A stretch of DNA of 51,153 nucleotides. Source: an uncultured archaeon. Its GTDB lineage: Archaea; Asgardarchaeota; Thorarchaeia; Thorarchaeales; Thorarchaeaceae. The notes under the pieces are model-generated. The model did not search any database and was not told where the DNA came from. It worked only from the letters and a program-made list of their open reading frames with translations. Where the stretch lies: contig CAZPWM010000013.1 of the NCBI GenBank assembly GCA_964590575.1, positions 1-51,153 on the forward strand, read 5' to 3'. The position numbers and the translations under genes were made by a program. Shown here in pieces: positions 8,921 through 42,805 of this stretch (position 1 is its first letter; the number at the start of each line of letters is the position of its first letter).

Positions 8921-8923
8921 AGA

Positions 8924-9661: not shown

Positions 9662-9663
9662 AA

Positions 9664-11862: not shown

Positions 11863-11943
11863 CCGTCATGCCTCAGTCTGAGTTCAATCAGCAGGTGTTG
11901 GAGTGCATTATGAGCCTTTTGGAAACACTCAGAAATTGGAGTT

Positions 11944-11979: not shown

Positions 11980-11995
11980 TGAATCACTGTTCCCA

Positions 11996-12229: not shown

Positions 12230-12348
12230 GATCCCACCGTAAGATTGTTACCATGTATCATATACCTCCGTATCGTTTCGATTTCTAGTTGTAGGTTTAT
12301 TGATAAGCCTTGGCATCAGAGAACTTTGTATATTGAGGAGCTGACTCT

Positions 12349-13008: not shown

Positions 13009-13019
13009 ACAAGGGAACT

Positions 13020-14291: not shown

Positions 14292-14528
14292 GCTTTCCTC
14301 TTTATAATCGAATATATGATATATGAATAATAACTATTTTTATATATTAAAGGTTTTCTGACATCATTGAATGGCCGAAAAATAATATCTAGATACTCTT
14401 GAGAAAGCCAAGATGCAAGAGCAAGCAAACAAACTGAGCCCTAATACAAAGAAGGATGATATGAAGCGCCATATATTGAAATGTGAGAGATTCCTTTCTA
14501 TTTTTAGGATTTCCAGAATTAAACAAGT
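14292..14528. promoter_or_regulatory. AT-rich divergent promoter region
   Basis: Strongly AT-rich, with TTTATA/TTTTTATATA boxes (~14301, ~14337), between divergent GTPase-like and LRR genes. Confidence 0.4.
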
Positions 14529-15161
14529 GTGTTGAAAGTGATAGAAGTTATTGTCACCCTATCGGATGGTACTAACGAAGCAATTGCCATCGAAGCGCAT
14601 TCAAAGATAGTGAACCTTTCAAATCGTTCAATTATTACGGTCGATCTTACAGAACTCGATAATTTGGAGGGGCTTGAAGAGCTTATTCTAAGCGGGAATA
14701 GTCTAATGACCATTGATTTGACAGTGCTAGCTTTCAGTCCTGCAATTCGAACTATACTTCTAGATCATAACAATTTACAGATTTTAAACATAGATTCGTT
14801 AGGTTATTGCACAAATTTGGAGCAGTTTAATCTGAGTTCAAATCAACTCCTAAGAGTTGATCTCTCTGCAATTTCAGGGTGTAAGAACCTAGTATCTCTA
14901 AACTTGGAAAAAAATAAGCTCATGAATCTAGATGTTGCTCCCATCTCAAAATGTGCAAAATTAGAGGAACTAAACCTTCTTGAGAATCCACTCAAACGAC
15001 TAGATTTAACAGCTCTTTTCTCATGCGCGTCTCTCCGATCGCTGTTGATTCCAGAAGACACTAGGCTGATCTCAAAGAAAAAATTTGAGATTGAGATACT
15101 AAATCCTCCAGCACTCAACGAGCTGATGTCCAATGGGAGAATTGAATTCTCTTTAGATTAG
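14529..15161 (+). CDS. Leucine-rich repeat protein, predicted cytoplasmic
   Basis: About six 22-aa LxxLxLxxNxLxxxDL repeats (LEELILSGNSL, LEQFNLSSNQL, LVSLNLEKNKL, LEELNLLENPL); no signal peptide. Start uncertain. Confidence 0.9.
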   Translation: MLKVIEVIVTLSDGTNEAIAIEAHSKIVNLSNRSIITVDLTELDNLEGLEELILSGNSLMTIDLTVLAFSPAIRTILLDHNNLQILNIDSLGYCTNLEQFNLSSNQLLRVDLSAISGCKNLVSLNLEKNKLMNLDVAPISKCAKLEELNLLENPLKRLDLTALFSCASLRSLLIPEDTRLISKKKFEIEILNPPALNELMSNGRIEFSLD

Positions 15162-15341
15162 TTTAACACCCTTTCGTCAAAGCTATTGAATTTCTTATTG
15201 ATTCATAATTCTGATTGTGAATGTTCGAATTAGCGTCTAATACGACCAAAAATTGTATTAGAATATACTAGATTGTCTTATTTTTTAATAGTTTGATTGT
15301 TTTTTGGTCATTTGACGTGGTTATCTTAAGGAGCAGGTAGT

Positions 15342-18300
15342 ATGAAAAAGGAAATAGCCGCTTTAGCAATAGTATTCATTTTCTTAATTCCTTTAGCTAG
15401 TGGTCCTGCTCCTGAAGGGAGATTCCCTTACTTTGAGGGAGCTACATCTAAGGGAGATGATTTTCTTCTTAGTGATTGGCAGGATGGCACCTCGGGTAAT
15501 GGAGATCCTTTACTCGGGAACCTCAACGGGCTGAGAGTTGCTAGTGGAACATCTGTCATTGATTATACACATTCGGGTTATGTTGGCATTGATCCGCCCT
15601 TGGGGTGGAGTTCTGGAGAACTGGAAGGACAGCTTGACCATCTTTCCATGTGGGTGGATTCAGAACTTGTTAATCCAAGACTTGATACATATCACACTGA
15701 AAAGCGATTCTTCACTGGTTCTGACTCGCAGTATAATGGTGATGATTTCCGTGTCCCTGATGGTTGGACACTCGTGAAGAATGACATCCCCTCTGCTGGA
15801 ACTCAACATCCTGAGCACGGGTGCTTAGAGGTTAATTCCTATAGTGGAAATGGATATGATAGTACTATGGGCTGGAGGTTCGATGCCAATTATGGTAGTG
15901 GCGAAATTCTTAGTCCCTCGGTCGAGGTATATATGAACCAACTGATTGCAGCACCTTGGCGAGCGATATATTCTGCAGAAATCTCCTTCCGCTACTACGT
16001 TTCATCCGTATCCGTCATGGATGATGACTTCTACATTTTCACTAGATTAGAAAGCTACACTTCAAAACATCATGTGTTTGAATCAACCGACCCTACAGAA
16101 ACCTGGCTTGAAGCTACAGCATCTGTCCCATCTTCATTTCTAGAATATTTGGAAAATCCAAATTCACTGCTTTTTGACATAGGTCTTGGAACTGACCTAA
16201 GTGGCCTATCAGGTGCTTCGGATCACGAAGTGTATATTGATGAGATAGAGCTGAGGCTCTTTGTACGCCCATTCCCTGAACAGATTGATCTCCGCGCTAA
16301 TGGAGCTCAGGTGACCGGTTCAACTCAGGGTAGTGTGAGCCCGTATGTTCCTGACGGAGCTAACAGGGATTGCTATAGCTGGGAGGATGATGGAGGCGTA
16401 GATCTTGATGGTTATGGCAACAATGGTTGGTTAGAGGTTGGGGCGGATGCGCCAGCATATCCGGACTGGAGTACTGCTTCTTCATATCAGGTTGGGTTTC
16501 AATTCCCTCTTTATGTGTCCCAAGGAGCATCTATTACATCAGCATATATGAGAGTCGAAGCAGCAAGTGACTCAACTGGTTATCCTGGTATGCGTGTTTA
16601 TGTAGCAAATGAGGATAATGTAGCTGCATTCACAAATGGATACCCTACTCTCCCAGATAGGTATGACTGGGTGAATACAAGTATCTATTGGCGTCCAACA
16701 ACATGGACAGTCAATGGGAGGTATGATACACCGGATATTTCAGCCCTCATTCAGGATGTGGTTTCGAAACCGGGGTGGCAGAGCGGCAACTACATCTGTA
16801 TAATGCTAGATTATGCTTATTCAAACCAAGACTATACATATAATCAAATTAAAGGCTCAACAGGATTCACACAAGCAGATCTTGCTAGACTCTTTGTAGA
16901 TTTCATTGAAAAAGAGCCTAGTGACACAATACCTAGTTTCAGTTTCAACAAGAAGCTGGTCATTGACCATACCAAAGTCATTTCGGATCTTCAAGATTTC
17001 CCGGTTCTTATTGACATATGGGACGAGAATCTTCATCTGGATGCCCAGGCAGATGGCGATGACATTGCTTTCATGTACAATGGTCAAGTGATTGACCACG
17101 AAATTGAGTTATTCGAAAAACAGGGAAATGGAACTCATGCACATCTAGTCTGTTGGGCCAAAGTTCCTCATCTGTCATCATCTGAAGACACCACAATAAC
17201 AATGGTGTATGGTGATGACGATCTTGGAAGTCAAGAAAATCCGGAAGGTGTATGGGATTCTGGTTACTCAACAGTTTGGCATCTGAATGACAACCCAGCT
17301 CAGCCCCAATGGGTTTCTGCCTACGCCGATTACGTGCCGCATCAACCTCAGGTTCTAGATAGTACATCACCCATGACTGGTGGTACAACCTATGGGACAA
17401 TGACATCAACTGATAGTGTCAGTGGCCAAATCGGAAGTGCAATTGATCTTGAAGGCGTGAATGATTTTGTTGATTTCGGAGACCCAACGGAATTGCAGAT
17501 GGCTGGAGCATTCACAGTCGAAGCTTGGTTCAAGGCCGATTTCATAGATAATGACTATCTTGTTGTTAAGTCCGGTGAGAGTAACTACCGTGGTTGGGAT
17601 ATCAGTTTTGATGATGACTCTTCCATAAGTCCTGCGGGTTGGGTTATGTTTAGATTTAGTCCAGATGGGGTAAACACAAACATCGTGGGTTTTGAGCGTG
17701 TTGATACAGGTCAATGGTATCATGTTGTTGGAGTCTTCAATCCTTCAGTATCTGCAAGATTCTACCTAAATGGTGAACTAGTCGATGAGATGACGTCCGG
17801 TGTGCCAGCGTCCGTGAACGACCCAAGTCGCCCTGTTAGAATTGGTCGGAGATCCGATAATCCTGGAGGAACGTCATATCTTGATGCGATTGTTGATGAG
17901 GTACGGATTTCGAATGTTGCTAGGTCTGATGCTTGGATTAGGACGCAATATTACAATCAGAGAAATCCCGAGCTCTTCATCGCTGTTGACGAAGAAAGTG
18001 TCAACTTCCAGTATATGAAAGACATTACTATCAATCACAATGAAGTTGCATCTGACCTCAAGGGTTTCCCGGTATTGATTGACATCTTTGATGCTGACCT
18101 GCACACAAATGTCCAGTCAGATGGCGATGACATAATGTTCACCTCAAATGGAAGAAGTATTCCACATGAGATAGAACTGTTTGACCAACAATACAATGCT
18201 ACTCATGCACACCTGATTGCTTGGGTCAAAGCAGACCTTTCTTCTTCATCTGACACGATACTGACAATGTACTACGACAACCCATCAATAGGAAGCCAAG

Positions 18301-21300
18301 AAAATCCCGACGAAGTTTGGCGTGCAGATTATGCAGGTGTCTGGCATCTTGGCGAATTAAGTGGTAGCGCTATTGATTCCACTTCCTTTGGTATATCCGG
18401 CTCAGTCAGTGCAGGAGTCACCAGAAATCAAGTAGGCATCGCTGGAAGTTGCTACGAATTCAATGGCGCAAACGGGAATGTCAACTTTGGAAATCCATCT
18501 GATGGTCATCTTGATTATGGAGAGAACGCCTTTTCCTTTAGTCTATGGGTCCGTGTAGACCAAAGCACAGGAAACTATCAGCTCCCCTTGTTCAAAGGAG
18601 GTACTACAACGTCTGATGCAGGATATGAGATTGAAAGCAATGTAGTAGGATCAAATCTGAAAGCTGAAGTCTCAGATGGGGCAATACAAGTAATCTCAGA
18701 CTCAACTCCTGTAACTTTTGGGCAATGGCTTTACCTAGTAGCTGTTGTGGATGTTGCGGCAAGCCTTCTCAGATTCTATAGCAACGGTGCTTTAGTGGGC
18801 TCATCGATGGACATTAGTTCGTTGGGTGATGTGAGTAACTCTCAGAATTTTCAGTTATCCCCCCTGTTATATCCGGTTGATGGTGCAATTGACGAACTTC
18901 GAGTGATGAGTAAAGCACTTACAGCAAGTTGGATTCTTACGGAGTATAATAATCAACTAAATCCGTCTAACTTCTATAACATAGGAAGTGAACAAGAAGT
19001 CATAATTCCTAAAGAAGTCCCCCTTGGATTCATGTACCAGAAAGTAATCAGCATAGACCATAACATGGTGGATGCAGACCTCTCTGGATTTCCAGTTCTT
19101 ATTGATATGTATGATACTGACCTTCGAACTGATGTTCAGGTTGATGGCGATGATATCCTATTTGTAAAGGATGGGTGGATACTACCACACGAAATCGAAC
19201 TATTTGACCAATCGTATAACTCCTCACATGGACATCTCATTGCATGGGTAAGAACAGACCTCTCTTCTACGTTTGATACAATTTTGTCAATGTACTATGG
19301 AAACCCTAGTTCAGAAAAGCAAGAGAATCCAGAAGGAGTTTGGGATACTTCCTTTGCCGCAGTCTGGCATCTTAGCGAAGATCCAGCTAGTGCAGTTTAT
19401 GATAGCACTGCAAACAGCAACGAGGGCATAGGGCTTTCAAGCGGCTCTGAACCCACCCTTCAGACAGGAAAAATATACGAATGCATTGAGTTCTTTGGAG
19501 AAGCTACTAACGACCGAATTCAGGTGGCTCACTCTTCATCTCTTGTGCTCCAAACTAATATCATGGTAGAAGCATGGATACGTACAAACAATACTGATTC
19601 AACATCAGACGCAATTCTCGCCAAATGGGGAGATGTAGGTCATAGAAACTATTGGCTGGGCAAGTTCGATGGGTCAACTCTCGCATTTTATGTTGACAAC
19701 ATGCAGAGTGTTACTGCATCACTGAGCTATGTAAATGATGGCGACTGGCATCATGTCGTGGGTGTGGCGAATTCAGGAACAGGTAACTTGCTTCTGTATA
19801 TTGATGGGATTGAACGTGGAAATGCAGCCTACAGTGGGTCAACACAAACTGGAACCTCAGTCCTTCATATTGCTAACAATCCGGGCTCGGTTGGGTTCAT
19901 TCAGGAATGGGATGGTCGAATAGATGAAGTGCGTGTTTCAAGCTCATCTAGGAGTTCTGGTTGGATTTCAACAGAATTCAAGAATCAGTATAATCCAACC
20001 AGTTTCTATTCAATCGGATCAGAAGTACCTGTTCAACCTGTTAGGTTATCATATAAGAAAGATATAGTGGTCGATCACACTAAGGTCGTAGCGGACCTGA
20101 CAGGCTTCCCACTTCTCATTGATATCTTTGATAGTGATCTTAAGACGAGGACTCAGCTAGATGGAGATGATATTATCTTTAAATCAGGGGCGTCACTGTT
20201 ACCACATGAAATTGAACTCTTTGATCCTGATTACAACTCCACGCATGCCCATCTTGTCGTATGGGTCAAGATTGATCTATCATCAACTGTAGACACTTAC
20301 GTCACAATGTACTATGGCAACTCAGAAGCGACCAACCAAGAAAATCCTGCAGGAGTATGGGATGACAATTATATTGGAGTGTGGCACTTGGGAGAAACCA
20401 CCGGTGGTAGCAACTCAATCAAAGATTCAACATCACAGGCTAACCATGGCACTGACTTTGGCGGTCCTACATTTGGAGTTAATGGGGCAATTGGAAATGC
20501 CATCGGATTCGATAGTAGCCCTTACATCCAGATCCAAGATAGTGTTAGTCTGGACTCAATAGCAACCGGAATCACAATTTCGGTTTGGACTCAAGCAGAT
20601 CCATACGTATGGGAAATACCAGTACTTGCAAAAGGAGGGGAGGATACTGGTGCATTCTCTCTATTTTATTACCGTTCAAGTGGTACGAACGACATATGCT
20701 ATAACTTGGACGGGGTTTCTAGCGGACCTCAGCATACTGGAGAACCCGTAACAAGGACTGGATGGATGCATGTTGTTCTTACCTATGATGGACTCTACCT
20801 AAAAGTCTACAAAAACGGCGCTCTAGCATCTTCACAGCTTATTCCTTCTACCCCATCAATCATCAGTAATAACGAGCCCTTGTATATCGGGTATGAATCG
20901 GACTATGATGATGATTTCTTGGGCATTATCGATGAAGCAAGACTTTCAGCCTCTGCCAAGCCAGAAGATTGGATACTAACAGAATACAATAACCAATACA
21001 ATCCAAGCTCCTTCTATTCCATTGGATTGGAGGAACAAATCAGTGACAATGGATACATCTTCACTACAAGTTCTGAATCTAGTGTAACAATTGGAGCTAA
21101 GCTTTCACTAGGAGTTCAGACCTCTGCACATAGCTATGCAGATGATTTTACTTTAGGCACATCATTCTCAATAGAAAATAGTACCCTACCAATTTGGACT
21201 GCAGGTGTGTTGGTTTCTCCGCCACCTGAAATAACGGCGCTATCATTCGAGATTTCCTATCCAGAGGGTGAATGGTGGCCATTTTCTGTCAAGAGTCCTT

Positions 21301-24300
21301 CAGGTGCAGAGAAGGGATTTGCTACGGACTGGACATGTTTTGATGGAAGACTAATTGTGGGATCAGATGCAATAGACGAATATGGTATGTGGCAGATACA
21401 ATTCCTGGACAGGAACCATGTTCTTGACACACAAATGGGTCCAACTGGAGGGCCCTATTCATCCACCGACCAGTTCACAATTGGCGAAGACATCCAGTTC
21501 CGGGTCTGGAGTTCTGGAACTATAGGGTCTACAATCTCTCTTGAGTTGACAGACCCATCAGGCTCTTCGTGGTATACGGGATCTACAACATTTCAAGGAC
21601 AGAGATTCACGCTACCATACTACCACAGAAAGTATCTAACAATTAGTCATGAAAATGTTGCTGAAGACCTTGGTAACTTTCCAGTACTTGTTAACATATA
21701 TGACTCTGACCTTCGTACAGATGTTCGTTCCGATGGTAGAGATATCGCCTTCGCGATTGGTGAAGAAACACTCTCGCACGAGATAGAACTTTTCGACCAG
21801 ACATACAACCTAACTCATGCTCATCTTGTGGCATGGGTAAATGTGCCAGTGCTCTCAGGTTCGACTGACACCGTAATTAGTATGTATTATAGTAATCCTT
21901 TGGCTCCAATAGTATATGATTCTGGACCAGTTTGGGATTCTGGTTATTTGGGAGTCTGGCATCTAGCGGAAAGTGGAACTGGAGCACCAGACGAGTATCT
22001 AGACAGCAGCCAGTACAAGAACCATGGGCAAGGTGGAGAAGGAAACAGCTCATTCGTTCCAACTCAGGTCTCCGGCAAGATTGGCTCTGGTCAGGACTTC
22101 AACAATCTAGACGGGTATTATGATCTTATCGACTGCGGTGATAGTCCTCTATGGGATATTGATGGGTATCAGATAACTCTCGAAGCATGGATTCAGCATG
22201 ATATCACTCCCAATAATCATGTCTATGGGATTATGAATCACAAGGGATGGTATGATGGGTATGCTTTGTACATCAATTACGGAGGTGGCTCAACCCTAAA
22301 ACCAACCTTTAGTCTTCCAGGTGAAACTCATCAACTAGTAGGAGCCAATGATGTAACGGGTAGTTCTTGGCACCACATTGTTGCAACGTACGATGGGTCA
22401 CTGATGAGGATCTATGTGGATGGTGTTCAGGATCCAAATGTTTTGGTGAAGACAGATGCGATAAAACCTTCAGCATACGAGAAGGATTTCTGGATAGGAC
22501 ACGGAGACCAGCCAAAGGATAAAGCTTGGAGTGCTGAATGGGAGGGCCAGATTGACGAGGTGCGTATTTCTGATGTTTTACGATCAGTAGGTTGGATTCA
22601 GACAGAGTTTGAGAACCAATATAATCCAAGTAGTTTCTACTCGGTTGGAGCAGAAGAAACTATAGGGTATTCAGAGTCTGCTTCCATCAATTTGGATACT
22701 TCAGCTCCTGCAGGAGTCTGGCGTGCAACAGCTCGATACAGTGATGGTAGTTCTTATGTGAGTCATAGAGTGGGCATGTTTGCTAGGAGCTTTATCGTGA
22801 AGCGTGGAACTTCATTAAGCCTCACCGCACCTGGAGATGCTATAGCAGATGGTATTTCAACCAAACTTGTTGGTGAGCAACTCTATGTTGAATTTGAGCT
22901 AGAAGATGCATTGAATGCGGCATTGGTGAGTGGAGCAACAGTATACATGAACTGGAGTGTTAGTGGTGTGCCCACGGAAGTCCAGCTCAACGATTATGGA
23001 GATGGGAGATATGGTAAGACTTTCAATACGTCTGATCTGGGAAGTTATGGAAGATGGCGACTAGACCTTGAAGCGTCGCACCAGTTTTATACTAATGCAA
23101 CAGATTTCTTCTATTTGGATCTCTCTCATAGGACTTTTCTGACCTACGAACCTCCACTTGACGCACCGTATGGAGATAATTTTGAAATCAGATTGACGTT
23201 AAAGGACCAGCTTGATAATGCACCTCTGACAGGCGCATCTATCTCATGCAATGCAACAATTCTAGGAATACCAACTGACTATGGAAATGGCACGTACTTG
23301 GTGACGGTTGATAGTTTAGGGTTCTCTATTGGAGAGTATACATTTAGGTTCACAGCCACGCCAAGCACTTCATACCTCCTGAGTAGCAATATTGATGTTC
23401 AGTTTAGTTACCGACCCATTGCTACTGATGCGACACCTCTTAGTCCTGATTCTGTTGAAGCACCATGGGGTCAGCAAGCCAATACAAGCATATACTGGTA
23501 TGATGTCGATCACGCAGGAATTGGAGTAGAGGGCGGTTCATTGAACATCTCTCCATTTGTCCAGACTCAGACTTTTGAGGGAGGCGGCGGTTTCTATGAT
23601 GTAATAATCGATGTCAGTTCCTTTACACCTGGAACCCACTTCTTCAACCTAACATGGTCAAAACTGAACTATCAATCATTAATAACCACCATAAGCGTCA
23701 CAATTCTTGCACATAGAACAACACTCAGTGTAGAGTATAACTCAACTATCCCTGTTGGGACTGATGCTTACTTTGATGTTTCTTGGTTGGATTTGAATCT
23801 TGACTCAAGTGCAGTCAATAGCGGTAATCTAAGTCAGGTAAATTTGGATTGGGGTATAGGAAGCGCAAGTTCCCTTACTCTTGGATTCTGGTTGGATACC
23901 AGTAGTTGGTCGATTGGTTCGTACTCAATTAACGTGACAATAAGCGCAACAGATTCTCCAAGATTCTACATGGATTCTTACATTTTGATTAACCTTGAGG
24001 TCCGAAAATTAAATGTATACTTGAGTTGGGATCCTCTTGAGCCATTTCCTAATGGAAACGACTTCGTGATGTTTATCCATGTGAATGTAAGCGAACCGGG
24101 TGGTTCAATCGATGGCACACCCATTACGGGGCTTGATCAGACCTATTTTAGTGCGAGAAATGAAACGGGCGGACTCTACACCTTCGAGAGCTTCACAAAC
24201 CTCGGAAATGGACTCTATCAACTCACCATTGACAGCACAAGGTTCTTAGAAGGACAGTATAAGATCATTGTTTTTGTTGATTTCCTACCAGCAGAAAACT

Positions 24301-33800: not shown

Positions 33801-36800
33801 GACTCTCAGAAATTACTGCAACAAGCACACAGGTCATGGTGTCGTCATCGGTGCTTGACGTCTTTGGAGTCTGGAAATTCACGTTCTCCTCGAGCAATGA
33901 AGCCTCGCTACTTGAGTGTGGTATAAATGCAGGAACGTATGGAAACACCATAGAACTTCAAATAGGAGATCTTGCAAAGTTCAGAGGCACTGCTGCGGTG
34001 ATTCCTGGATCGGCAATGCGTCTTCGCTTAGTGGATCCAAGTGGTCAGCTCTTTTACAGCACAGATGATTTGAGCCAAGACGGCAGTGGTCAGTTCGAAT
34101 GGACTGGAATCAGTGTGACTAGCGCTTGGCCAAACGGGCTGTGGGAGGCTCATGTCGACTTTAACAACACAGCAGACTCTACTCCAGAGAGGGTTGGGAG
34201 ATACAGTAGATTATTCACTGTCAAACATGCCTCATCACTGACTCTGTTGTCACCAGCTGATGCAGTGGGCGATGGCGTTTCAGTTCGGACTGCAGGAGAA
34301 CTCCTTGAAGTGGAGGTTCAACTGATCAATACTGAAACTACTCAGAATGTAGCAGGCTCGACTGTCATGATGAACTGGAGCGTATCGGGTATTGAAACTC
34401 AGGTCCAGTTCGAAGATTATGGCAATGGTGTCTATGGTAAAACTCTCAATACTTCTGACCTAGGGCAACCAGGAAACTGGAGGCTCAATATTGTCTCAAG
34501 TCATCACTATCTTATTGATGCAACAACCTTCTTTGATTTGAAGCTCTCACATAACACAGTTCTGACTTACAGAACACCAGCATCAACACCATATGGTGAC
34601 GACTTTAGCGTCAGAGTTAATCTCCAAGATGCTATTACCGGAGCGCATTATGATGGAGCATCCTTTACCTCAAATGGTACGATCAGTGGTGTTACAGATT
34701 ATAATAATGGCACATATCTTGTCAACATAGATTCAACAGGCTTGAGTGTCGGAACATACTGCTTCAAAATAAACACAATTCCATCACAAAGCTTTGTAAT
34801 TGAGAGCTCAGTCGATGTGGTCTTTCATTATAGAGAGATTAAAACAGACCTCATTCAAATCGAAACAAACCCAGTAAGTGTGCCATGGGGTCAAAATGCA
34901 ACGGTCATGATAAATTGGTTGGATATTGATCATGGTAGCGGGGGAATATCTGGAGGAACGTTGAGTGGTGATGGAACATTTCAATATGTTGACTTGCTTG
35001 ATGGTAGATACTCCATCCAAATTGATGTTGAATCATTCAATGTCGGCATATACACATTCAATTTCACTATCGTTCGCACGAATTATCAGTCAAGTGAGAT
35101 CGCAGTGGCTGTGACCGTAAGACCGCACGGGACAACTGTTGTAGCCGCATATGACAGTTCCATACCTATGGGAACGAATGTCACAGTCACTCTTACATTT
35201 TTAGATCGTGATGCTGGAAATACAGTAATTTCAGGAAATCTCTCAAGCGTTCTCGCGGAATGGACCGGGGGGTCTGATATTTACGGTACGCTTCAGATCC
35301 TAATAGAATCTCAGAATTGGGCGATTGGGACTTATACGATTGATATTACAGTGCATGCGACTACATCTCCAAGATACTACTATGATGTAACTATAGTAAT
35401 ATTACTTAGAGTTGAAAAGTTAACTACATTCCTTTCGTGGGATAACTTGGGCGTCTTTCCAATCGGGGATGACTTCGAAGTAACTGGCTATGTGACCGTG
35501 AATGATTCACGTTCCATCTATGATAATATGCCAGTCAATGGTCTTCTTCAAAGCAACTTTATTATCAGGGACAAGAATGGTACGGCCTACAACATCAAGA
35601 CATTTTCAGCCCAGGCTGCAGGAACCTATGTCCTGACCCTCGACAAATCGTATTTCCCCGGAGGTTCTTACGGGATACGTATATTCCTTGTCTTTGGGGT
35701 TTCTGAGAATTACTCTAATGCACAAACACCCATCATTAGTTTTCAATTCAGCAAAGCTAGAAGTGACCTGAGTTCTCCGGATTATCCACTTCTGACCATT
35801 TCATATAGTACAAATGGTGTTATTACCCTAGAGTTTGTTGATATTGATAGAGGACAAGGTATAGACACAGCAACATTCTATGTTGTAGGAGCAGGAAAAC
35901 TCGGTCAGCAATTGATTAGCAGTGGTAGATACAGAGTAACGGTTGACACTTCCTCTTGGAGTATTGGAGTTGCCACTGTGAACTTCACAGCTTCAGCGTT
36001 AAACTATGAGAACAAGACAATTTCAATTGACATCCAAATCAGGGAAATCAGAACATATGCCACGGCAACTGTAGGTACTCTGGAAATACCTGTAGGTGAT
36101 TCCCAAACCTTCTATGTTGATTACATTGACATGGACCACAACCTTCCAATCCCCACTCTGAGCCATTCTTGTAATTGGACTGTAGCCCACTATGATATTG
36201 TCTGGACAGGTGATCGGTATAGTATCACAATCCGTACCTATGACAGCGATGCCTTGACATCCTATCTTTTAGTCTTTGATTTTGCAGCTGGATTGGAGTA
36301 TGAAGCAGCTACATTCAATGTCACTATTGTGATTCGAACAATCAAGACCGAGTTGCGTTTCTTATCGCCCGTTCAAGATACAACTTCTGATGGGAAGATC
36401 AATATTTCAGTGTATTACGGTGATCGAGATCACCTACAAGGGATTGCATCTACTTTTGTCCTATGTACAGTCTGGAACACGACTCACCAACTCACAATTT
36501 ATTGGGAAAACGATACGGTCAATGGTGAGGGATATTACATCATATCAATTGCAGCCTCACAGTTTGGAGGCATTGGAATTCAGCAATTAACTATCTTCTT
36601 CAATTGGACTGGAAGTATCCAAGAGTATGAGAACAAATACCTATCTGTTGATGTTGAGATTGTAGGAGCGGATACAGAACTAACATTGACTGAGGCTGCA
36701 CTTCCTTCTCCATGCCTCGATTACATGGTCTACACGTTCCTATATTCAAGTCCATCCACTGGCGGGATTACAAATGATACCTTCAATGTGATAATAAGCA

Positions 36801-39800
36801 TTGATTTCGTTGGTGTCACAGTTGATCTATCACAAGTTGATATTTGGGAAATAGATAGTGGTGGAAGTCCAGGAGAGTATTCTATTGGATTCAATAATTC
36901 GATACTTGGCGGAACGGGAATCTTTTCCTTGAGGGTTTTCATAAACTGGTCTGCTGGTGTTTCCCCATTTTATACCAATAGGACTGACTTGATTTCAGTA
37001 AGAGTGCTTCCAAGGACCGCAATTTTCTCAGTTATACCTCCCACTAGTATTCCATTTGGTGAGAACGCCACATTTTCATTCACATATGAAGACACGACAG
37101 GAGGCGCTGCCAGTTCTATTGCTTATAACTCACTAGCAATGACGTTATCACTCAATGTACCTGATTTCACAATGACTTACAACTCGCTCGATGGATTGTA
37201 TACAATCTCATTCAACACGAGTCAATTGGGTGCTCCATTAGGAAAGAGATTACTCAGCCTAAGCCTTGCTTGGAGTGGGTTGCCATTCTATTCTAATGTC
37301 ACTGGACGGCTCATAGAAATAACACTGATAGAGCGTCAGACACTTCTAACGTATCCCACTCCTCCTGCGACGCCTTATGGGAATAATGTTACCTTTACAA
37401 TTGCATATGTTGACATCGCAGGTTCGAACTCGAAAGCTGTCCTAGGAACCATTATTGAGATATATGATGGACCAACAGAGATTCCCTCTAGTTATATTCA
37501 CATAATGCACCTAGGCTCAGGGGAATACCAAATCGAACTGAACACGTCCTATTTCAGCCAACCCGGGCTCGTTTTACTTAGAATTGAAGCTTCATCTGGA
37601 CAGTTTTACTATCAAGCCAGAAATGCAACAAAAAGCCTCGAAGTCAATCTTCGTACTACATTGTTGACAACTGAGCCTATTGGATCTGTTCCATATGGCA
37701 ACTCATTTAGTATAGTTCTACATTATCAGGATCTTGATTCACTTGTCCCATTAGGAAATGATACTGGAGTTATGACTAGTTTAGAGATTCTGAATGGGAC
37801 CAGTTGGCAATTTACCTGTATTTGGCGAGCTTCGCTACAGAACTATCTTCTCACAGTTGAAACTTACAACCAAATCCTTGAGCTAGGACAGACCTATTAT
37901 CTTTGGTTGAATATCAGCTCTGAATATACAATACCGTTTTATCAGTCCGATGATGTTTTGGTGCCCTTCCAAATGCGCGAAAGGGACACTAGTCTGGTCT
38001 TGATATCGGCACCATCACAGACGCACTATCGAGACTATGCAAACTTCACTATCATGTTCAAGGATGTATTATCATCATCAGGGATCACTGGCAGTTCAAT
38101 TCATCTATATTTCGGAGTAGTACTTCTTCAGCCCTCAATAGACTACACAATTATTGAAGTCAGTGCAGGTCTCTACACAATTTCCGTGGACACCGCAGTC
38201 CTAGGTGTGCCAGGAACAAAAACATTGCAGGTGATTGCTGACTGGTCTGCAGGACCTCCGCATTACCGTGATGCTCAACGGAACATAATTGTTCCAGTCA
38301 CCGAGAGACCAACAAACGTTGAGGTCGTGTTTCCACCAGGAAAGACTTGGTACCTTGACAACATGACATTGGATTTCGCTTTCGTAGATATATCAACAGG
38401 TGAAAGAGTGGTTGTGTCTCTCAGCGACATTAAGGTATACAGTGGGCCCACACTTCTTGCATATGGCGAATATGCAATTCAATCCATTGGCCCAATATTT
38501 AGACTATTGATCAATTCTACCATCATTAGCGCGACCTTAGTGAGCAATTGGAACATAACAATTCAGATTGATTGGACTGCGGGAGCACCGTATTATGAAA
38601 ATGATGCAACCTCGGTCTTTGTAAGCACTGTAGGTAGAGGTGGAAGCATTGAGTTGAGTCAAATTGAGGAAACACCTTTTGGAGATATCATGAATATTAG
38701 CTTGATATATACAGATCAAAGGACAGGGAAGGCAATAGAAGGCGCAATTATTGTTCTTCATTGTGATCAGGTGCCGGGTCTGGCTGAAGGGGTTGACTAT
38801 TGGGTACAGATGTTAACTGGTATTGATTCAGGGACCTATAGAATTCTTGTCAGCACACCTTCATTAGGAAGCCTTGGAAGTTTCACCTTTGAAATTGAAG
38901 TACAATGGAGTGCCTTAGTAAGTCCATATTATAGCAATATCATTTCACCAGAAGTACAGGGACTTGTTCGTGCAATTCAGACATCTGTTTCAAGTGATTT
39001 ACCATCACCCTCAGTTGTTGCATTCTATGAAGACATTTCGTTTGTGATGCAATTTACAGATACAGATCATGGAGTACCAATAAATGGGGCTGAAGGACAG
39101 ATTTCTGTGAGGTATCAATCAACAGGATTGGAACCATCATCTTGGTCAGTCCAAGTACTAGGTAGCGGACAATATAACATTACTTTGAGCATGATGGATT
39201 CTTTGAATGTTGGTCTACAATCCGTCATTGTGACAATCAATCGTCCACTATACCAAATTGCTCAGACATCAGTTGTATTTGGATTACGGAACAGAGTTGC
39301 TGGATTATCTGCAATTATAGCACCTACAAATTATGCAGGTTATGCGACATCGGTCATGATATACCTCGTTGATTATGATGCTAATGATAGTCCACTTTCA
39401 GGAGCTAGTCTGGTTCGAACTTGGGGAGACTCATCATCATATATTGATCTAGGAGATGGCAGCTATAACGTAACCCTTCAGACTGGCAATTTGAATTTTG
39501 GCTCACAAATCTTGACTGTACACGCTAATCGACTACACTACTCAATTACATCATTGAATATAGAAATTAACCTTCTTGCCGTCCCTTCCGAGCTAATAGT
39601 CACTTGGAGTGGGCCTAGGCTAACTAGTGAAATTTATTGGGGCGAACCCCTTACAATATTCGCGGTAATCAACGATACTCTTAGGAATCAGACAATTTCA
39701 GTGGCGACCATTACATATGACTGGATTGGAGGACCTGGTTCATTTCTGCCTTCAGGGGTACCCGGTAACTACATAGCGATTCTCGATACTAGCTTAGGCG

Positions 39801-42800
39801 CTATTTCAGATACCATAATCGTTAGGATTGAAGGCAGTGCGCCAAACTACATTGATGCATCATATCAGCTAGTTTTCAGACTTTTACCAAGACCAATGGA
39901 AATCATTCCTGAGGGAAATAAATACGTCTTCACTGTGTCCTATGGTGATACTGCGGAAGTAATTGTTTACCTAGAAGACTCGCTTGGTCCCAGTCTTGTA
40001 ACTGAGGCAAATCTTGCAGCAAGATGGGACTATGAAACCAATCTAACGTTGGTTGAGATACCAAGTAGACCTGGTTATTACAGACTTTCAATACCAACAG
40101 GAACAGCTGGTTTTGGAAGCTACGAAATTCAGATAGATGCATCAAAACAAAACTATGGTAGTACATCAGCAACACTGATTATGGCAATTTCAAAAATCCA
40201 AATGGTTGTATGGCTCGATAATGTCACTGCAACCTATGAATACACTTCTTTCTATTGGTCTGAGGTAGTCAGAATTGGAGTATATGTTCTTGCTCCAGCA
40301 CTTAACGCATCGTATCCACTCTCCACAGGATTAGACGGTCTGGTTGTCACATGGAACTCGCCGGAACTTGGTACAAATGGAACACTTGTGAATGGAATCA
40401 TGATAGGTGGTTCGGGGTATTATTATTATGACTTCAATACCAGTCAAGGTATTGCTGCGCTACACACATTCATTATCTCAGCTAATCCACCGGATCCTGA
40501 TTACGAGAGAGCAGATAATTCTACATCAATTTTCGTAAGAAATCTAGAAGCAACCATTGTGTCACCAGGTTCACCTGAATTGGTGTGGGGATGGACTGGT
40601 CTTGTTAATGTTACATATTATGACAACTTTCATGTGCAAGGTGTACAGGCGGACTTCTCTTCATTTTCATGGGCTGGAGGATCTGGTAGTGCTGTCTATC
40701 TAGGCGAAGGAATCTATGGTATTCCAATGAATACAACAAAGCTCAGACCAGGAACATATACAATCACAATTGAGTTTCGTAAAGCAAACTATGATGACAC
40801 GGAAATAACGATCAGAATTCATATTGCATCGGTTCCTACTGAAATCGCGGTTCTTCTCCCTGAAATATATCGAATAGGTGATACGTGGACAAATCTACAG
40901 ATTCCTTATGGAGATATACTTACGGTCACGTTACTTTACAATGATACAAATAGTGCCAGAGGAATTCCTGACGCTGTAATCAACAACTCGGTTTATACTG
41001 GACCAGGAGTCTATGAAGATACTCTAATACTAACGAATCATGGTAATGGCAACTATTCATTTATCTTCAATACACTTGATTGGAGTCTGCATTCTAGTAT
41101 TTCATATCATATTCGATTCATGCTTGAGAATTATACAACAGCAGAATTTGTTTTCGAGATCACAATTATCAAAATCCAAACCAGTCTCGAAATAGATGGA
41201 CCTTCCGTAATGTCACTTCACTGGGGGATGAATACCACCTTCTGGGTTCATTATTCAGATGCATGGCCAGGACACTCAGGAGAGGGTATTACTGATGCGA
41301 TGATTGTAATCGAAAATCTTCCACCCAACTGTGCAACAATCGAGTTCTTGGGTCCTGATGGAAGTCGTCCAGGTTACTATCAGTTCAGAGTCGTAGCACT
41401 TAGAGTAGCAGGTGTAGCAGGATTCACAATACATTTCAACAAGACATACTATGATGCCAACTCAATAACGCTTTCCGTTTCGGTAAGTCCGTCTGCAGAA
41501 GATATTGCATTGCAGAATGCAATCACATGGGGAGGCGCACTTGCTATAATTTTGATACTTGGTTCTCTTGTATGGGTGCGTATCTTGAGAGTGCCAAAAA
41601 TAATCAGGATAATTAGTGGTCAGATTCGACAGATACGCAAAGGGCGAATACCCAAACCAGCTAAGGGTGTTCAGGCAAGACAAGCGCTTGTTGCAGAGAT
41701 GTTTAATGAGCTTTATGAACCGGTTGGAGTACGAAGAAAGATTTCTCAAATGCCTGCAGAGCCAATTATAATTGAAGTTCCTGAAATCGATGAACTGATT
41801 ATAGATCTCTCAATCCTTACTGGAATGACCCAACAGGAACTTGATGATTTCAGATTTGAAATATCAAAAATGAAGATGAGTCAGCAAACCAGTTTTGTTA
41901 GAGAGGTAATTAAGCAGGAGGTCATAAGAGTTGCAGGTGTCCAGAATAAGTCAATAGAACAGGTTCTAGAAGAAGTTGTAGAAGATAGAAAAAGAAGAAT
42001 TGGTGGAGCTGCAACACCGGTTAAACCAGAGGTCTACGAAGTAATCGAAGAGGACACCGAAGTTGCTGAGCCAGAAGAAAAAGGAATCGATTTTGAAAAT
42101 ACGATGAGAGAATTTGAGCTCGAAGAAATGGCGATTGAGTTGGAAAAACGTGGTATTCCAAAACATGAGATTGAATCATTCATCTCTCAGGCTCGAGAGC
42201 TCCCGAAAGATGTGGTAGAGATGCTTCTTCAAAGTTTCCAGCCTAAGGAAAAAGTAGAAGCAGTTGAAAAAGAAGTCGAGCATCTCTCTGAAGAGGAGAT
42301 TGAGAAACTTCGTTCTGAACTAATCAAACGAAAAGCTAGTGACCGTGAAATCGAGTCAATCATTGACCAAGCAAGAAGTCTTCCTAGAGAACTTGCTCTC
42401 GAATTCTTTAAAGAACCAGAGAAACCAACTAGAAAGAAACGAGTCAAGAAAGAGGAATTGCTTTCTAAAGAGGAACTTGCAGATCTACGAGCCGAGTTGG
42501 AAGAAAAACGAGTGCCTAAAGATGAGATTAAGTCAATTATGAAGCAGGCTCAAACAGTTCCGAGGGATCTAGTTGAAGAATTCCTAAAGACAATTGAAGA
42601 CAAAGAGCCAAAAGAGCATCTTGAGGAAGTTGAGTTTGAAGACAGACTCAGTGAGTTCGAGGCCGAGGAGCTTCGCTTACAGCTTTTGGAACGAGGTCTT
42701 CCAGAGGAGGAAATTGAGTCAATTGTTAAGCAAGCCAAGAATCTTCCCACCGCTCTAATTGAAGACCTTTTGAAGAGTATCGATGCGGACTTGGATAAGA

Positions 42801-42805
42801 GGTAG
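30872..42805 (+). CDS. Giant single-pass surface protein B (3977 aa), paralog of A, with 1 DUF2341+LamG module and 4 cytoplasmic repeats
   Basis: Colinear with A (RPFPEQI.L, GSVSPYVPDG, LSSPDYP, IRIGVYVLAP.LN.SYPLSTGL, VPEI.EL...LSIL, SKMK.S.Q..FV.EVI.QE). TM at ~41520-41580. GTG start overlaps the TAG of A by 1 nt, with GGTGA SD upstream. Confidence 0.9.
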   Translation: MSITIASKKRVKKWKHVCSRVIIPCIILIIFCSPAGFTLNQSDLVSEMPISNSSPYWFEPAEGPQEYSSTGSSQPVAFGGLFSNATQPIVMLDSSAPATVSIAAPQGWSANDLSGTIEHISTEVGGLTNELLDDYHSERCIITGSAWNSETYYVPDDWSLLKSGDSTIHPGHGGLYWYTSSGSGREDSMGWRPSVLFDTSKTIDPSMEIYLSQQVQLPWREVYSCKISFYHRVPSGQTLSGIFYLFIRVGSYEAKFNVLSAGYTTDTWIQTTVDVPASVFSNIPVPGSVPVSIGLSTDFSGQPSSNINNYVYIDEIEAVFEARPFPEQIGLSVNQSILTSSVSGSVSPYVPDGVYRDCSDNPTTGIVSSPMDVGVKGAAWSSASKYQTAFQFQLAIPKGAVITSARLEIEAQSSVGGGNNGLRVYAAQEDNFAPFSSGLPHLEDRYDWSATSVNWLLTSWVSSNRYMSPDISSLVQGVISRDGWSSDNYICIMLDYMFSDSYNDYNRIKGTSSYNGEDLARLFVDFMIPLPEDSISLFKYKKDIVVDHTKVSSNLQDFPVLIDIFDSDLKVNAQEDGDDIRFWSGNELLDYQMELYDSNYNLTHAHLIAWVRVPFLSSSIDTTISMRYGVPDISSLESSLGVWQDRYQSIWHMSESSGSGAYLKDSSSYGHDGTPTGTVFMDSGKIDGARYLQNSGYSYIMFEGGEDLLDGWSDWQFSFWMYPDFSSTSEWQAGSSEPDVFYKGASMSLARVYSYGGSDGTFQIDTHFQSSGTSYLTVSIRNRAWNYVVMKYESSGDGRLRAYSYVNGGLFDSFNELVGTGDRLVNDASAFLLGATNPDTAFCGGMDEYRFIKEGYTSLAWIQTEYANQYDPTSFSAVGEEQTTQIEDTTTLVFATTNPSIVEILPRLKLNVTYDGLTFDANFQEGTSFSVNNGTDVTWIANVLVSPPTGISDLSFNLSNPAVWSLTNVSDSVGQSRLSEITATSTQVMVSSSVLDVFGVWKFTFSSSNEASLLECGINAGTYGNTIELQIGDLAKFRGTAAVIPGSAMRLRLVDPSGQLFYSTDDLSQDGSGQFEWTGISVTSAWPNGLWEAHVDFNNTADSTPERVGRYSRLFTVKHASSLTLLSPADAVGDGVSVRTAGELLEVEVQLINTETTQNVAGSTVMMNWSVSGIETQVQFEDYGNGVYGKTLNTSDLGQPGNWRLNIVSSHHYLIDATTFFDLKLSHNTVLTYRTPASTPYGDDFSVRVNLQDAITGAHYDGASFTSNGTISGVTDYNNGTYLVNIDSTGLSVGTYCFKINTIPSQSFVIESSVDVVFHYREIKTDLIQIETNPVSVPWGQNATVMINWLDIDHGSGGISGGTLSGDGTFQYVDLLDGRYSIQIDVESFNVGIYTFNFTIVRTNYQSSEIAVAVTVRPHGTTVVAAYDSSIPMGTNVTVTLTFLDRDAGNTVISGNLSSVLAEWTGGSDIYGTLQILIESQNWAIGTYTIDITVHATTSPRYYYDVTIVILLRVEKLTTFLSWDNLGVFPIGDDFEVTGYVTVNDSRSIYDNMPVNGLLQSNFIIRDKNGTAYNIKTFSAQAAGTYVLTLDKSYFPGGSYGIRIFLVFGVSENYSNAQTPIISFQFSKARSDLSSPDYPLLTISYSTNGVITLEFVDIDRGQGIDTATFYVVGAGKLGQQLISSGRYRVTVDTSSWSIGVATVNFTASALNYENKTISIDIQIREIRTYATATVGTLEIPVGDSQTFYVDYIDMDHNLPIPTLSHSCNWTVAHYDIVWTGDRYSITIRTYDSDALTSYLLVFDFAAGLEYEAATFNVTIVIRTIKTELRFLSPVQDTTSDGKINISVYYGDRDHLQGIASTFVLCTVWNTTHQLTIYWENDTVNGEGYYIISIAASQFGGIGIQQLTIFFNWTGSIQEYENKYLSVDVEIVGADTELTLTEAALPSPCLDYMVYTFLYSSPSTGGITNDTFNVIISIDFVGVTVDLSQVDIWEIDSGGSPGEYSIGFNNSILGGTGIFSLRVFINWSAGVSPFYTNRTDLISVRVLPRTAIFSVIPPTSIPFGENATFSFTYEDTTGGAASSIAYNSLAMTLSLNVPDFTMTYNSLDGLYTISFNTSQLGAPLGKRLLSLSLAWSGLPFYSNVTGRLIEITLIERQTLLTYPTPPATPYGNNVTFTIAYVDIAGSNSKAVLGTIIEIYDGPTEIPSSYIHIMHLGSGEYQIELNTSYFSQPGLVLLRIEASSGQFYYQARNATKSLEVNLRTTLLTTEPIGSVPYGNSFSIVLHYQDLDSLVPLGNDTGVMTSLEILNGTSWQFTCIWRASLQNYLLTVETYNQILELGQTYYLWLNISSEYTIPFYQSDDVLVPFQMRERDTSLVLISAPSQTHYRDYANFTIMFKDVLSSSGITGSSIHLYFGVVLLQPSIDYTIIEVSAGLYTISVDTAVLGVPGTKTLQVIADWSAGPPHYRDAQRNIIVPVTERPTNVEVVFPPGKTWYLDNMTLDFAFVDISTGERVVVSLSDIKVYSGPTLLAYGEYAIQSIGPIFRLLINSTIISATLVSNWNITIQIDWTAGAPYYENDATSVFVSTVGRGGSIELSQIEETPFGDIMNISLIYTDQRTGKAIEGAIIVLHCDQVPGLAEGVDYWVQMLTGIDSGTYRILVSTPSLGSLGSFTFEIEVQWSALVSPYYSNIISPEVQGLVRAIQTSVSSDLPSPSVVAFYEDISFVMQFTDTDHGVPINGAEGQISVRYQSTGLEPSSWSVQVLGSGQYNITLSMMDSLNVGLQSVIVTINRPLYQIAQTSVVFGLRNRVAGLSAIIAPTNYAGYATSVMIYLVDYDANDSPLSGASLVRTWGDSSSYIDLGDGSYNVTLQTGNLNFGSQILTVHANRLHYSITSLNIEINLLAVPSELIVTWSGPRLTSEIYWGEPLTIFAVINDTLRNQTISVATITYDWIGGPGSFLPSGVPGNYIAILDTSLGAISDTIIVRIEGSAPNYIDASYQLVFRLLPRPMEIIPEGNKYVFTVSYGDTAEVIVYLEDSLGPSLVTEANLAARWDYETNLTLVEIPSRPGYYRLSIPTGTAGFGSYEIQIDASKQNYGSTSATLIMAISKIQMVVWLDNVTATYEYTSFYWSEVVRIGVYVLAPALNASYPLSTGLDGLVVTWNSPELGTNGTLVNGIMIGGSGYYYYDFNTSQGIAALHTFIISANPPDPDYERADNSTSIFVRNLEATIVSPGSPELVWGWTGLVNVTYYDNFHVQGVQADFSSFSWAGGSGSAVYLGEGIYGIPMNTTKLRPGTYTITIEFRKANYDDTEITIRIHIASVPTEIAVLLPEIYRIGDTWTNLQIPYGDILTVTLLYNDTNSARGIPDAVINNSVYTGPGVYEDTLILTNHGNGNYSFIFNTLDWSLHSSISYHIRFMLENYTTAEFVFEITIIKIQTSLEIDGPSVMSLHWGMNTTFWVHYSDAWPGHSGEGITDAMIVIENLPPNCATIEFLGPDGSRPGYYQFRVVALRVAGVAGFTIHFNKTYYDANSITLSVSVSPSAEDIALQNAITWGGALAIILILGSLVWVRILRVPKIIRIISGQIRQIRKGRIPKPAKGVQARQALVAEMFNELYEPVGVRRKISQMPAEPIIIEVPEIDELIIDLSILTGMTQQELDDFRFEISKMKMSQQTSFVREVIKQEVIRVAGVQNKSIEQVLEEVVEDRKRRIGGAATPVKPEVYEVIEEDTEVAEPEEKGIDFENTMREFELEEMAIELEKRGIPKHEIESFISQARELPKDVVEMLLQSFQPKEKVEAVEKEVEHLSEEEIEKLRSELIKRKASDREIESIIDQARSLPRELALEFFKEPEKPTRKKRVKKEELLSKEELADLRAELEEKRVPKDEIKSIMKQAQTVPRDLVEEFLKTIEDKEPKEHLEEVEFEDRLSEFEAEELRLQLLERGLPEEEIESIVKQAKNLPTALIEDLLKSIDADLDKR
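42100..42790 (+). repeat. Four ~45-aa helical repeats in the cytoplasmic tail of protein B
   Basis: Consensus LSE.E.EELR..L..RG.P..EIESI..QA..LP..L.E..LK at ~42100, 42281, 42461 and 42641; a single copy ends protein A (~30710-30850). Confidence 0.85.

Follow-up and report, generated by a model that had tools for sequence, protein, structure and literature searches.

Paired genes for giant surface-protein candidates of receptor-like layout in a four-gene block of a Thorarchaeota genome

The window analyzed here is the whole of contig CAZPWM010000013.1 (51,153 nucleotides, nt; contig C13 in our labelling), one of 194 contigs in the 3.4-Mb genome (assembly GCA_964590575.1; label G000) of an uncultured archaeon of the Thorarchaeaceae. 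Two adjacent genes on its forward strand, termed A and B and located at 15342-42805, encode giant type-I membrane proteins and are the subject of this report. The features of the two genes, as delimited from the open reading frames (ORFs), by hydropathy, by BLASTP, by searches with hidden Markov models (HMMs) and by AlphaFold2 modeling, are listed below in window coordinates (aa, amino acids; TM, transmembrane; Ig-like, immunoglobulin-like; pLDDT, predicted local distance difference test).

15342..30872, + strand: gene A, 5176 aa, ATG start, giant type-I membrane protein (ORF listing)
15342..15410, + strand: A signal peptide (aa 1-23), with a hydrophobic segment at aa 4-23 by hydropathy
15411..16931, + strand: A N-terminal membrane-distal domain (aa 24-530), family-specific
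16938..21044, + strand: A head modules 1-4 (DUF2341 + Laminin_G_3, ~350 aa each; aa 533-1901), from Pfam and the module HMM
21045..21623, + strand: A insert domain (aa 1902-2094, ~190 aa), homologous to B aa 886-1060
21624..22697, + strand: A head module 5 (aa 2095-2452), from Pfam and the module HMM
22830..30071, + strand: A stalk (aa 2497-4910), 23 Ig-like units with many N-x-S/T sequons, from an iterated unit HMM
30096..30158, + strand: A TM helix (aa 4919-4939), with GIPIG, from hydropathy and AlphaFold2
30159..30596, + strand: A cytoplasmic helical domain (aa 4940-5085), in which the motifs SVPKRLR and KGKIPKP precede a helical bundle, from AlphaFold2
30597..30713, + strand: A acidic disordered linker, pLDDT about 47-54 at model residues ~180-210
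30714..30857, + strand: A single terminal three-helix repeat (aa 5125-5172), from the repeat HMM and AlphaFold2
30857..30874, + strand: A/B junction, GGAAGGTGA (Shine-Dalgarno-like), a 6-nt spacer, then the TAG/GTG overlap of 1 nt
30872..42805, + strand: gene B, 3977 aa, GTG start, giant type-I membrane protein (ORF listing)
30920..30991, + strand: B N-terminal hydrophobic signal segment (aa 17-40), from hydropathy
30992..32482, + strand: B N-terminal distal domain (aa 41-537), from BLASTP against A
32483..33526, + strand: B single DUF2341 + LamG-like module (aa 538-885), from Pfam and the module HMM
33527..34252, + strand: B insert domain and pre-stalk segment (aa 886-1127), from BLASTP and the stalk unit HMM
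34253..41491, + strand: B stalk of 23 Ig-like units (aa 1128-3540), from the iterated unit HMM
41519..41596, + strand: B TM helix (aa 3550-3575), with GGALA, from hydropathy
41597..42031, + strand: B cytoplasmic helical domain (aa 3576-3720), from alignment with A
42104..42787, + strand: B four terminal three-helix repeats (aa 3745-3972), from the repeat HMM

The two frames remain open over 5176 and 3977 codons, lengths that chance cannot produce. At the junction, the letters TAGTG contain the stop codon of A (TAG, 30870-30872) and the start codon of B (GTG, 30872-30874) with one base common to both, and the overlapping GTG start is needed for B, since the signal segment of B lies upstream of its first internal Met. 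The junction is bridged independently by contigs from two DNA runs (X1 record 4, 30669-32149; X2 record 11, 30217-31505), which differ from the window by 0 and 3 letters, respectively; one of the runs may be the source sample. Five 151-nt pieces of a single metatranscriptome run (X20) match the locus, two of them being identical to the window (30727-30877 and 30935-31084), and none of the five spans the A/B junction by 31 letters on each side. Because carry-over of DNA is possible, we give these RNA matches little weight. In the explanation that we favor, a single message with translational coupling yields both A and B. The two proteins are colinear paralogues, with 38% identity between A2432-5173 and B1061-3793 (2766 columns in BLASTP) and likewise 38% between A72-885 and B91-881.

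The membrane-distal part of each protein is composed of an N-terminal domain and lectin-type modules. The N-terminal domain of A (~500 aa) has 43% identity to those of B and of a further paralogue, C, described below. It matched none of the Pfam families up to an E-value of 10 and no PDB sequence at E ≤ 1, and a search of the ESM Atlas gave scores of 0.86-0.89 only, in which the CBM96 clusters are a lead and nothing more. All 31 homologues of this domain are fragments from metagenome-assembled genomes (MAGs) labelled Thor, Sif, Hod or Promethearchaeota, and all 31 are without a functional name (hypothetical, DUF2341 or LamG-like). The modules that follow in A are matched by Laminin_G_3 (PF13385; 320.2 bits, E 2.7e-96, five stretches, against a gathering cut-off of 27.6) and DUF2341 (PF10102; 90.6 bits, E 8.8e-26, cut-off 23.4). 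In B, DUF2341 scores 24.1 bits, barely over the same cut-off, and the LamG part is visible solely with the local module HMM (E 6.5e-78). Both proteins therefore exceed a Pfam gathering threshold for this Laminin_G_3/DUF2341 class, and the local HMM for the whole module counts five copies in A and one in B. Between modules 4 and 5 of A lies the insert domain, which has no Pfam match; its homology to B is seen in the alignment of A1569-2079 with B538-1063 (35.5% identity in BLASTP). One LamG module of A (aa 1010-1192, 18369-18917) also matches Pfam Toxin_R_bind_N (E 6.6e-9), which we take for a cross-match among jelly-roll folds of the concanavalin-like class and not for a sign of a toxin.

The stalk consists of 23 contiguous units of ~105 aa in each protein, with a repeat period of ~108 aa, and was modeled for four of the 23 units of A (aa 3416-3852, 13-sequence alignment). 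The AlphaFold2 model (pLDDT 90.9) is all-beta and shows four beta-sandwiches. A Foldseek search with this model gave 500 or more matches with E ≤ 1e-3, led by titin I65-I70 (6.4e-15), and the top matches comprise titin Ig, protocadherin/E-cadherin EC and RTX-adhesin extender tandems with E-values from 6e-15 to 1e-10. The confident model and its matches to solved structures place the stalk in the class of Ig-like tandem beta-sandwiches; because the titin, cadherin and RTX-adhesin matches are tied, the generic Ig-like fold alone is established. Sequons for N-glycosylation number 67 in the A stalk (aa 2453-4915) and 56 in the B stalk, against 28.1 ± 4.5 and 24.6 ± 4.4 in shuffled sequences, that is, 2.3-2.4 times the shuffle mean, and their density of 2.3-2.7 per 100 aa compares with a genome background of 0.55. 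The head modules of A are depleted of sequons (8 against 17.4 ± 3.7 in shuffles), and the tails are nearly free of them (0 and 1). The distribution of sequons therefore fits an extracellular, glycosylated stalk carrying bare binding heads.

Hydropathy analysis identified, in each protein, one C-terminal TM helix in addition to the N-terminal hydrophobic signal segment; the sequence beyond the helix is 237 aa long in A and 402 aa long in B. The first ~145 aa of this region form a juxtamembrane domain with 44% identity between A and B over 135 aa, and the cytoplasmic part of A is acidic (55 Asp + Glu versus 32 Lys + Arg). In the AlphaFold2 model of the last 266 residues of A (40-sequence alignment; pLDDT 88.6), the TM helix is succeeded by a basic helix after the invariant SVPK-x-x-R, the KGKIPKP loop and five more helices up to model residue 170; the model has seven helices here, with pLDDT mostly above 90. 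Beyond it, a disordered acidic linker leads to a three-helix bundle at model residues 217-264. This terminal repeat is present once in A and four times in B, as counted with the repeat HMM.

The cytoplasmic helical domain belongs to no known family by Pfam, PDB sequence or fold comparison. Searches of the tail gave sub-threshold noise only in Pfam at E ≤ 10, nothing relevant in NCBIfam, a best E of 0.026 among PDB sequence profiles (ribosomal eL36), a best E of 1.1 among PDB folds in Foldseek, and no usable match in the ESM Atlas; a wide comparison with VIA-align reached a best Z of 6.2 across 56 residues, which is under the noise level for helical models. For the three-helix repeat, the best fold matches were three-helix bundles of viral phosphoproteins (Z 4.6-5.1, within noise). 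A reading of the tail repeats as SAP/HeH is unsupported, SAP being unlisted for either tail up to E ≤ 10, and a reading as UBA found no support from Pfam or fold comparison.

Much of this architecture had been proposed in the initial annotation of the window, and it stood up well. The 1-nt overlap and the colinearity, the shared N-terminal domains, the near-equal Ig-like stalk, the single TM helix and the conserved juxtamembrane domain were all confirmed; the stalk of "roughly two dozen" units proved to have 23 in each protein by the unit HMM, with the fold given by AlphaFold2 and Foldseek; and the reciprocal difference between A (five modules, one tail repeat) and B (one module, four tail repeats) was reproduced by the HMM counts and, for B, in 5/5 species (see below). 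The proteins had also been set apart from PGF-CTERM-anchored proteins; consistently, no PGF-CTERM model of NCBIfam matched at E ≤ 0.01, and the TM helix is followed by the long cytoplasmic sequences described above. The Asgard origin assumed there is likewise correct, as shown by the ESCRT genes of the window and by the Thorarchaeota MAGs that are the nearest titled relatives of the tail.

A and B are members of a larger family. When a profile of the TM helix and tail was searched against 1.84 billion cluster representatives, 150 representatives were found at E ≤ 1e-3, 126 of them at E ≤ 1e-10. The 54 strongest matches are full-length and stop no further than ~270 residues from the C-terminus; several of the proteins concerned are 3,000-5,500 aa in length. 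The titled genome loci with tail relatives (80 kept) are mostly from Thorarchaeota MAGs, the closest being Candidatus Thorarchaeota MAGs. Within the window genome, the tail repeat and juxtamembrane motif are confined to six giants, A-F, apart from two weak matches (a giant on contig C25, E 0.015, and a 182-aa ORF on C87, E 0.025), and no other stand-alone protein with either element was found in that genome. The giants C-F make up two further tandem pairs: C/D, with two modules in C and one in D, is spread across contigs C129, C72 and C1, and E/F, ~2600 aa each and without a LamG module, lies on C26. The ends of C129, C72 (both) and C1 share protein sequence and are probably one locus with the C/D pair; a repeat-induced assembly break is likely at C72/C1, because the overlap there differs at two residues. 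Directly upstream of E/F on C26 (30649-32811, - strand) is an ORF of 721 aa, for which no Pfam family was found; its N-terminus resembles a signal sequence, and a TM anchor lies at its C-terminus.

Both pairs recur in other species, examples being C/D in genome G001 (contig C1) and E/F in G025 (contig C33), which is from another genus. E and F are joined by an ATGA overlap in the window genome, and in G025 a spacer of 4 nt lies between them; C and D are not coupled, the gap between them being ~190-230 nt. Family members thus occur mostly in tandem pairs, and one true singleton was found (G025, contig C21). A maximum-likelihood tree was built from the C-terminal 950 residues of 19 members, with a midpoint root for drawing only. 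In it, A groups with B (support 96/95) and C with D (100/100), and E/F stand apart. From this grouping, each pair arose by its own independent tandem duplication. The stem branches of A and B (0.71 and 1.08 changes per site, B being longer) far exceed the 0.07-0.24 between species, so the A/B split is old.

The distribution of the pair was surveyed in 41 genomes, including 24 congeners, one further genus from the same order and 15 genomes from elsewhere in the phylum. A query consisting of the TM helix and tail of B matched 29 of the 41, among them all 24 congeners, the other genus (1/1) and, as weak partial matches, 3 of the 15 other genomes of the phylum. With a threshold of at least 70% identity, B orthologues are present in 12 of the 24 congeners and A orthologues in 11 of those 12. 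B without A occurs in one congener (G019, 74% complete), A without B in none, and neither gene was found in the other 12; in no genome more than 74% complete was a lone A or B found. On every contig holding both genes (G002, G005, G006 and G016), A is directly upstream of B. In all five species with a readable junction (the window and these four), the stop and start overlap and a GGAGGTG-type motif precedes the B start, the four other species showing GGAGGTG followed by an ATGA or GTGA overlap. B has 3975-4011 aa, one head module and four tail repeats in 5/5 species. The A tail repeat count is one in 5/5, and three full-length copies of A have 5176, 5894 and 6208 aa with 5, 6 and 7-8 modules; two more species have open frames of 5898 and 6555 aa. 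In four of the five species, stalk plus TM helix together measure 2509-2511 aa for A and 2509-2510 aa for B, and the aligned spans in G016 are 2504 and 2502 aa; A and B are thus equal to within 2 aa at 37% identity. Because C, D and the 4431-aa singleton of G025 are colinear with most of the A stalk, this fixed length is a property of the family and not specific to A and B. Conservation of the pair in other genomes, which the initial annotation had named as a check, was accordingly seen, with both genes in 11/24 congeners and adjacent and overlapping in 5/5 species; in place of the singletons with stalks of variable length that would have refuted its reading, mostly tandem pairs with a constant stalk were found.

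What is new here is that A and B are part of a ~30-kb block of four genes together with the genes for an atypical Ras-like protein and a cytosolic leucine-rich repeat (LRR) protein, which lie upstream of A as follows.

13020..14291, - strand: Ras/Roc-like gene (423 aa) with an atypical P-loop, first gene of the block, from Pfam
14529..15161, + strand: small LRR gene (210 aa), ending 180 nt before A and read in the same direction, from Pfam (LRR_8, E 4e-15; LRR_5, E 1e-10)

In genomes G002 and G006, the order is ESCRT genes, the aspartyl-tRNA synthetase (AspRS) gene, a hydrolase gene, Ras-like gene(s), LRR, A, B, a methylase gene and an aminotransferase gene, the LRR orthologues adjoining A. 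G001 and G024 have the same flanks with the methylase gene directly beside the hydrolase or AspRS gene, and none of the four block genes is present at the site. Since these flanks join directly, the Ras-like gene, the LRR gene, A and B (13020-42805) constitute one ~30-kb unit of insertion or deletion. Ras-like orthologues (at least 61% identity) were found in 11/11 genomes with A and B and in G007, and not in the other 11 congeners lacking A and B nor in G019. Two tandem Ras-like copies are present in G002, G006 and G018, and G014 and G021 also gave two matches.

The Ras/Roc-like protein has an N-terminal extension of ~220 aa, followed at residues 221-402 by the region matching Pfam Ras (E 5e-12) and Roc (E 1e-6). 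Ras-type GTPases carry the motifs GxxxxGK[ST] and DxxG. Here, the P-loop reads GEEGVGVNS, with no Lys/Ser, DAWT stands in place of DxxG, and NKTD is retained; the same altered motifs occur in three of four further copies (from G002 and G006), the P-loop of the fourth not being located. To judge from these motifs, the protein is possibly a conserved pseudo-GTPase. The translated LRR protein has no N-terminal hydrophobic segment.

A second link to a GTPase concerns a distant member of the family. The giant on C25 noted above (11163-19147; 6164-14148 in locus L099) is a 2365-aa protein whose tail is acidic and whose TM/juxtamembrane motif is weakly related to that of the family, and its gene overlaps by 4 nt a 298-aa ORF, whose C-terminal half is a canonical small GTPase with motifs of the Arf/Roc type (GHGGTGKTT, DLGGQ and NKQD; Pfam Arf E 1.7e-11).

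The ESCRT cluster of the window (6940-10422) comprises genes for Snf7 (6940-7557, - strand), Vps4 (7700-8920, + strand), an ESCRT-II/Vps25-like protein (8924-9661, + strand) and an EAP30/Vps22-36-like protein (9664-10422, - strand). A functional tie of A and B to this cluster, 5 kb upstream, was rejected: its gene order is kept in G001, G002, G006 and G024 whether the block is present or not, and G001 and G024 retain the cluster and the flanks without the block, so the proximity is incidental. Beside Snf7, at 5359-6936 (+ strand), is a gene for a 525-aa protein with an N-terminal match to a B-box zinc finger (E 8e-4, below the Pfam cut-off), whose position is kept in G001 and G024. At the other side of the window, a gene for a family-B DNA polymerase (48911-51046, - strand) is split by an intein bearing a LAGLIDADG domain, as judged from the Pfam matches DNA_pol_B, Intein_splicing and LAGLIDADG_3, and its frame exceeds the window end.

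Based on these observations, we consider it likely that the family to which A and B belong is restricted to Thorarchaeota and comprises giant surface proteins that cross the membrane once, are probably heavily N-glycosylated and have the full architecture proposed here. They are regarded as candidate adhesion or receptor proteins, the term receptor being drawn from the architecture and the gene context. The sequon-poor distal head, made of the N-terminal domain and the DUF2341/LamG modules, would bind external ligands, most likely glycans on particles or partner cells, and the fixed array of 23 individually conserved Ig-like domains would keep the head far from the membrane, at roughly 80-100 nm if each unit measures ~4 nm. 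The single TM helix would join the stalk to the structured helical cytoplasmic domain, from which the acidic leash, ending in one (A) or four (B) three-helix bundles, may present docking sites for cytoplasmic partners. The inheritance of A and B as a block with the cytosolic LRR and atypical Ras-like proteins suggests that a functional link to them may exist.

Several points weigh against this interpretation. The two proteins are known here from their genes alone, and the RNA support amounts to five short contigs of one run. The LamG and DUF2341 matches give a fold class and not a ligand. Because no relative of known function was detected for the tail, its role as a docking platform is one that we infer. 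The Ras-like protein may not be a working switch, since the P-loop Lys/Ser and the DxxG glycine are missing; moreover, no GTPase or LRR neighbors occur at the C/D and E/F loci, so a GTPase link is not family-wide. The counts of co-occurrence come from related genomes of one genus and are not independent, and a single subclade could explain them.

Whether A and B act together is a separate matter. As independent paralogues, they would work apart, as monomers or homo-oligomers with different ligands, their adjacency and overlap being only a result of recent tandem duplication in a compact genome. The tree topology, the recurrence of tandem duplication in the family and the different head content of A and B are in keeping with this, and we hold it to be a fair possibility that falls short of being the expected one. 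Against it, the duplication is old, yet the overlap, the upstream motif and the co-occurrence have all been retained, and neither gene was found alone in any genome more than 74% complete.

The 1:1 heteromer put forward in the initial annotation would, in its strict form, be an obligate heterodimer comparable to integrins, with stalks side by side and with pairing through the TM and juxtamembrane segments, the binding heads coming mainly from A and the docking sites mainly from B. In favor of it are the translational coupling kept in 5/5 species, the co-occurrence of the two genes (11 congeners with both, one incomplete genome with only B, none with only A, 12 with neither), the 23 units each with spans equal within 2 aa, and the conserved reciprocal asymmetry of heads and tails. 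Each TM helix begins on its outer side with a small-xxx-small motif (A, GIPIG; B, GGALA), a motif type that mediates pairing of TM helices, and the two further tandem pairs, including E/F with its ATGA overlap, would fit a repeated evolution from homodimer to heterodimer. However, the equal stalk is common to C, D and the G025 singleton and does not single out A and B, and the separate tandem duplication of each pair in the tree is also what ordinary family growth would give. In addition, C and D are uncoupled, a true singleton exists, and the number of A heads differs among species (5, 6, 7-8). A complex prediction of the A TM and juxtamembrane segment (residues 1-178) with that of B (1-175), made without controls, scored 0.00 and 0.00, which weighs neither for nor against the heteromer. 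The claim gains from the conserved coupling, co-occurrence and reciprocal asymmetry, and is weakened where it drew on the equal stalk; an obligate heterodimer is somewhat doubtful in our judgment.

It is also conceivable that A and B serve as structural glycoproteins, made in bulk for an amorphous envelope in place of an S-layer, and form a passive cell coat in which the cytoplasmic domain merely anchors or sorts the protein and nothing is transmitted inward. The long and sequon-rich stalks, the six family members in a single genome and a stalk length constant across paralogues, as for a layer of defined height, would suit such a coat, as would the amorphous proteinaceous coat described for cultured Asgard archaea in a preprint (bioRxiv 10.1101/2025.11.06.686947). 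Nevertheless, a folded domain of ~145 aa and one to four bundles on a leash, with 40-80% identity, go far beyond the needs of an anchor, and the four bundles of B are retained in 5/5 species. The lectin-type heads, variable in number, are likewise not expected of a passive coat, and the pair is dispensable for the envelope, since it was not found in 12 of the 24 congeners. We therefore judge a purely passive coat unlikely. Quite improbable is the most far-reaching proposal, namely that A and B constitute a two-chain, integrin-like receptor whose helical domain and five bundles per pair recruit the LRR and Ras-like proteins in an outside-in pathway.

In comparison with known systems, A and B share with protocadherins, FAT cadherins and integrins the type-I topology, a tandem beta-sandwich ectodomain and a tail that could dock partners, and the protocadherin and E-cadherin ectodomains are among the top Foldseek matches of the stalk model (E 5e-12 to 1e-10). 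Judged by Pfam domains, they do not belong to the cadherin superfamily, no Cadherin match being present at E ≤ 0.01 in A or B. The same applies to the integrin alpha and beta chains, as no integrin, VWA or FG-GAP match was found at that cut-off; integrins are two-chain receptors whose alpha and beta chains are not paralogous to each other, whereas A and B are. The tail of A and B is without a relative among solved structures. The ~100-aa Ig-like extender array and the distal ligand-binding modules are features in common with the giant repeat adhesins of bacteria, and the extender of the Aeromonas hydrophila RTX adhesin (PDB 6xi1) ranks third in the fold search with the stalk (E 7e-12). In RTX giant adhesins, a retention module of type-1 secretion provides the anchor, and RTX repeats lie at the C-terminus; in contrast, A and B start with a signal peptide and end with a TM helix and a folded domain in the cytoplasm, and neither gave a Pfam match of the RTX type, which places them outside the RTX/type-1-secreted adhesins. 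Nor does the block encode a ROCO protein, because the LRR and Roc/Ras parts are on two divergently oriented genes without a COR match.

A survey of proteins of at least 5000 aa (PMC11573180), in the part available to us, gives Laminin_G_3 as the commonest domain of archaeal huge proteins, of which a typical one has one or more Laminin_G_3 near the N-terminus and a function that "is not understood"; three huge proteins were counted in Thorarchaeota. A resembles these in its size and its Laminin_G_3 on the N-terminal side, while B, with 3977 aa, is under the threshold of the survey. Tandem pairing, the number of stalk units, the cytoplasmic domain and the gene context do not appear in that part of the account and are described here. 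In the literature searched, supplements being outside the scope, no account of the pair, the family, the tail domain or the block was found, and the main text of PMC6737245 contains none of the terms "surface", "S-layer", "adhesi", "glycosyl" and "large protein".

According to the preprint cited above, cultured Asgard archaea have an amorphous protein layer and no S-layer. For the coat proteins of Thorarchaeota, the A/B family provides concrete candidates with a eukaryote-like receptor layout, in which a single TM helix would connect a glycosylated ectodomain to a folded docking region in the cytoplasm, and with a gene context that makes the proposal testable. If the tail does not bind cytoplasmic partners, A and B would be large lineage-specific adhesins, useful for annotation and unsurprising. 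Should the two-chain, integrin-like reading be true, a pathway from adhesion to a GTPase module would exist in the closest prokaryotic relatives of eukaryotes. If the tail binds the products of the block or other cytoplasmic partners, the family would offer a first handle on how surface contact in Asgard archaea is connected to the intracellular machinery, and would bear on models of eukaryogenesis that involve the engagement of partner cells.

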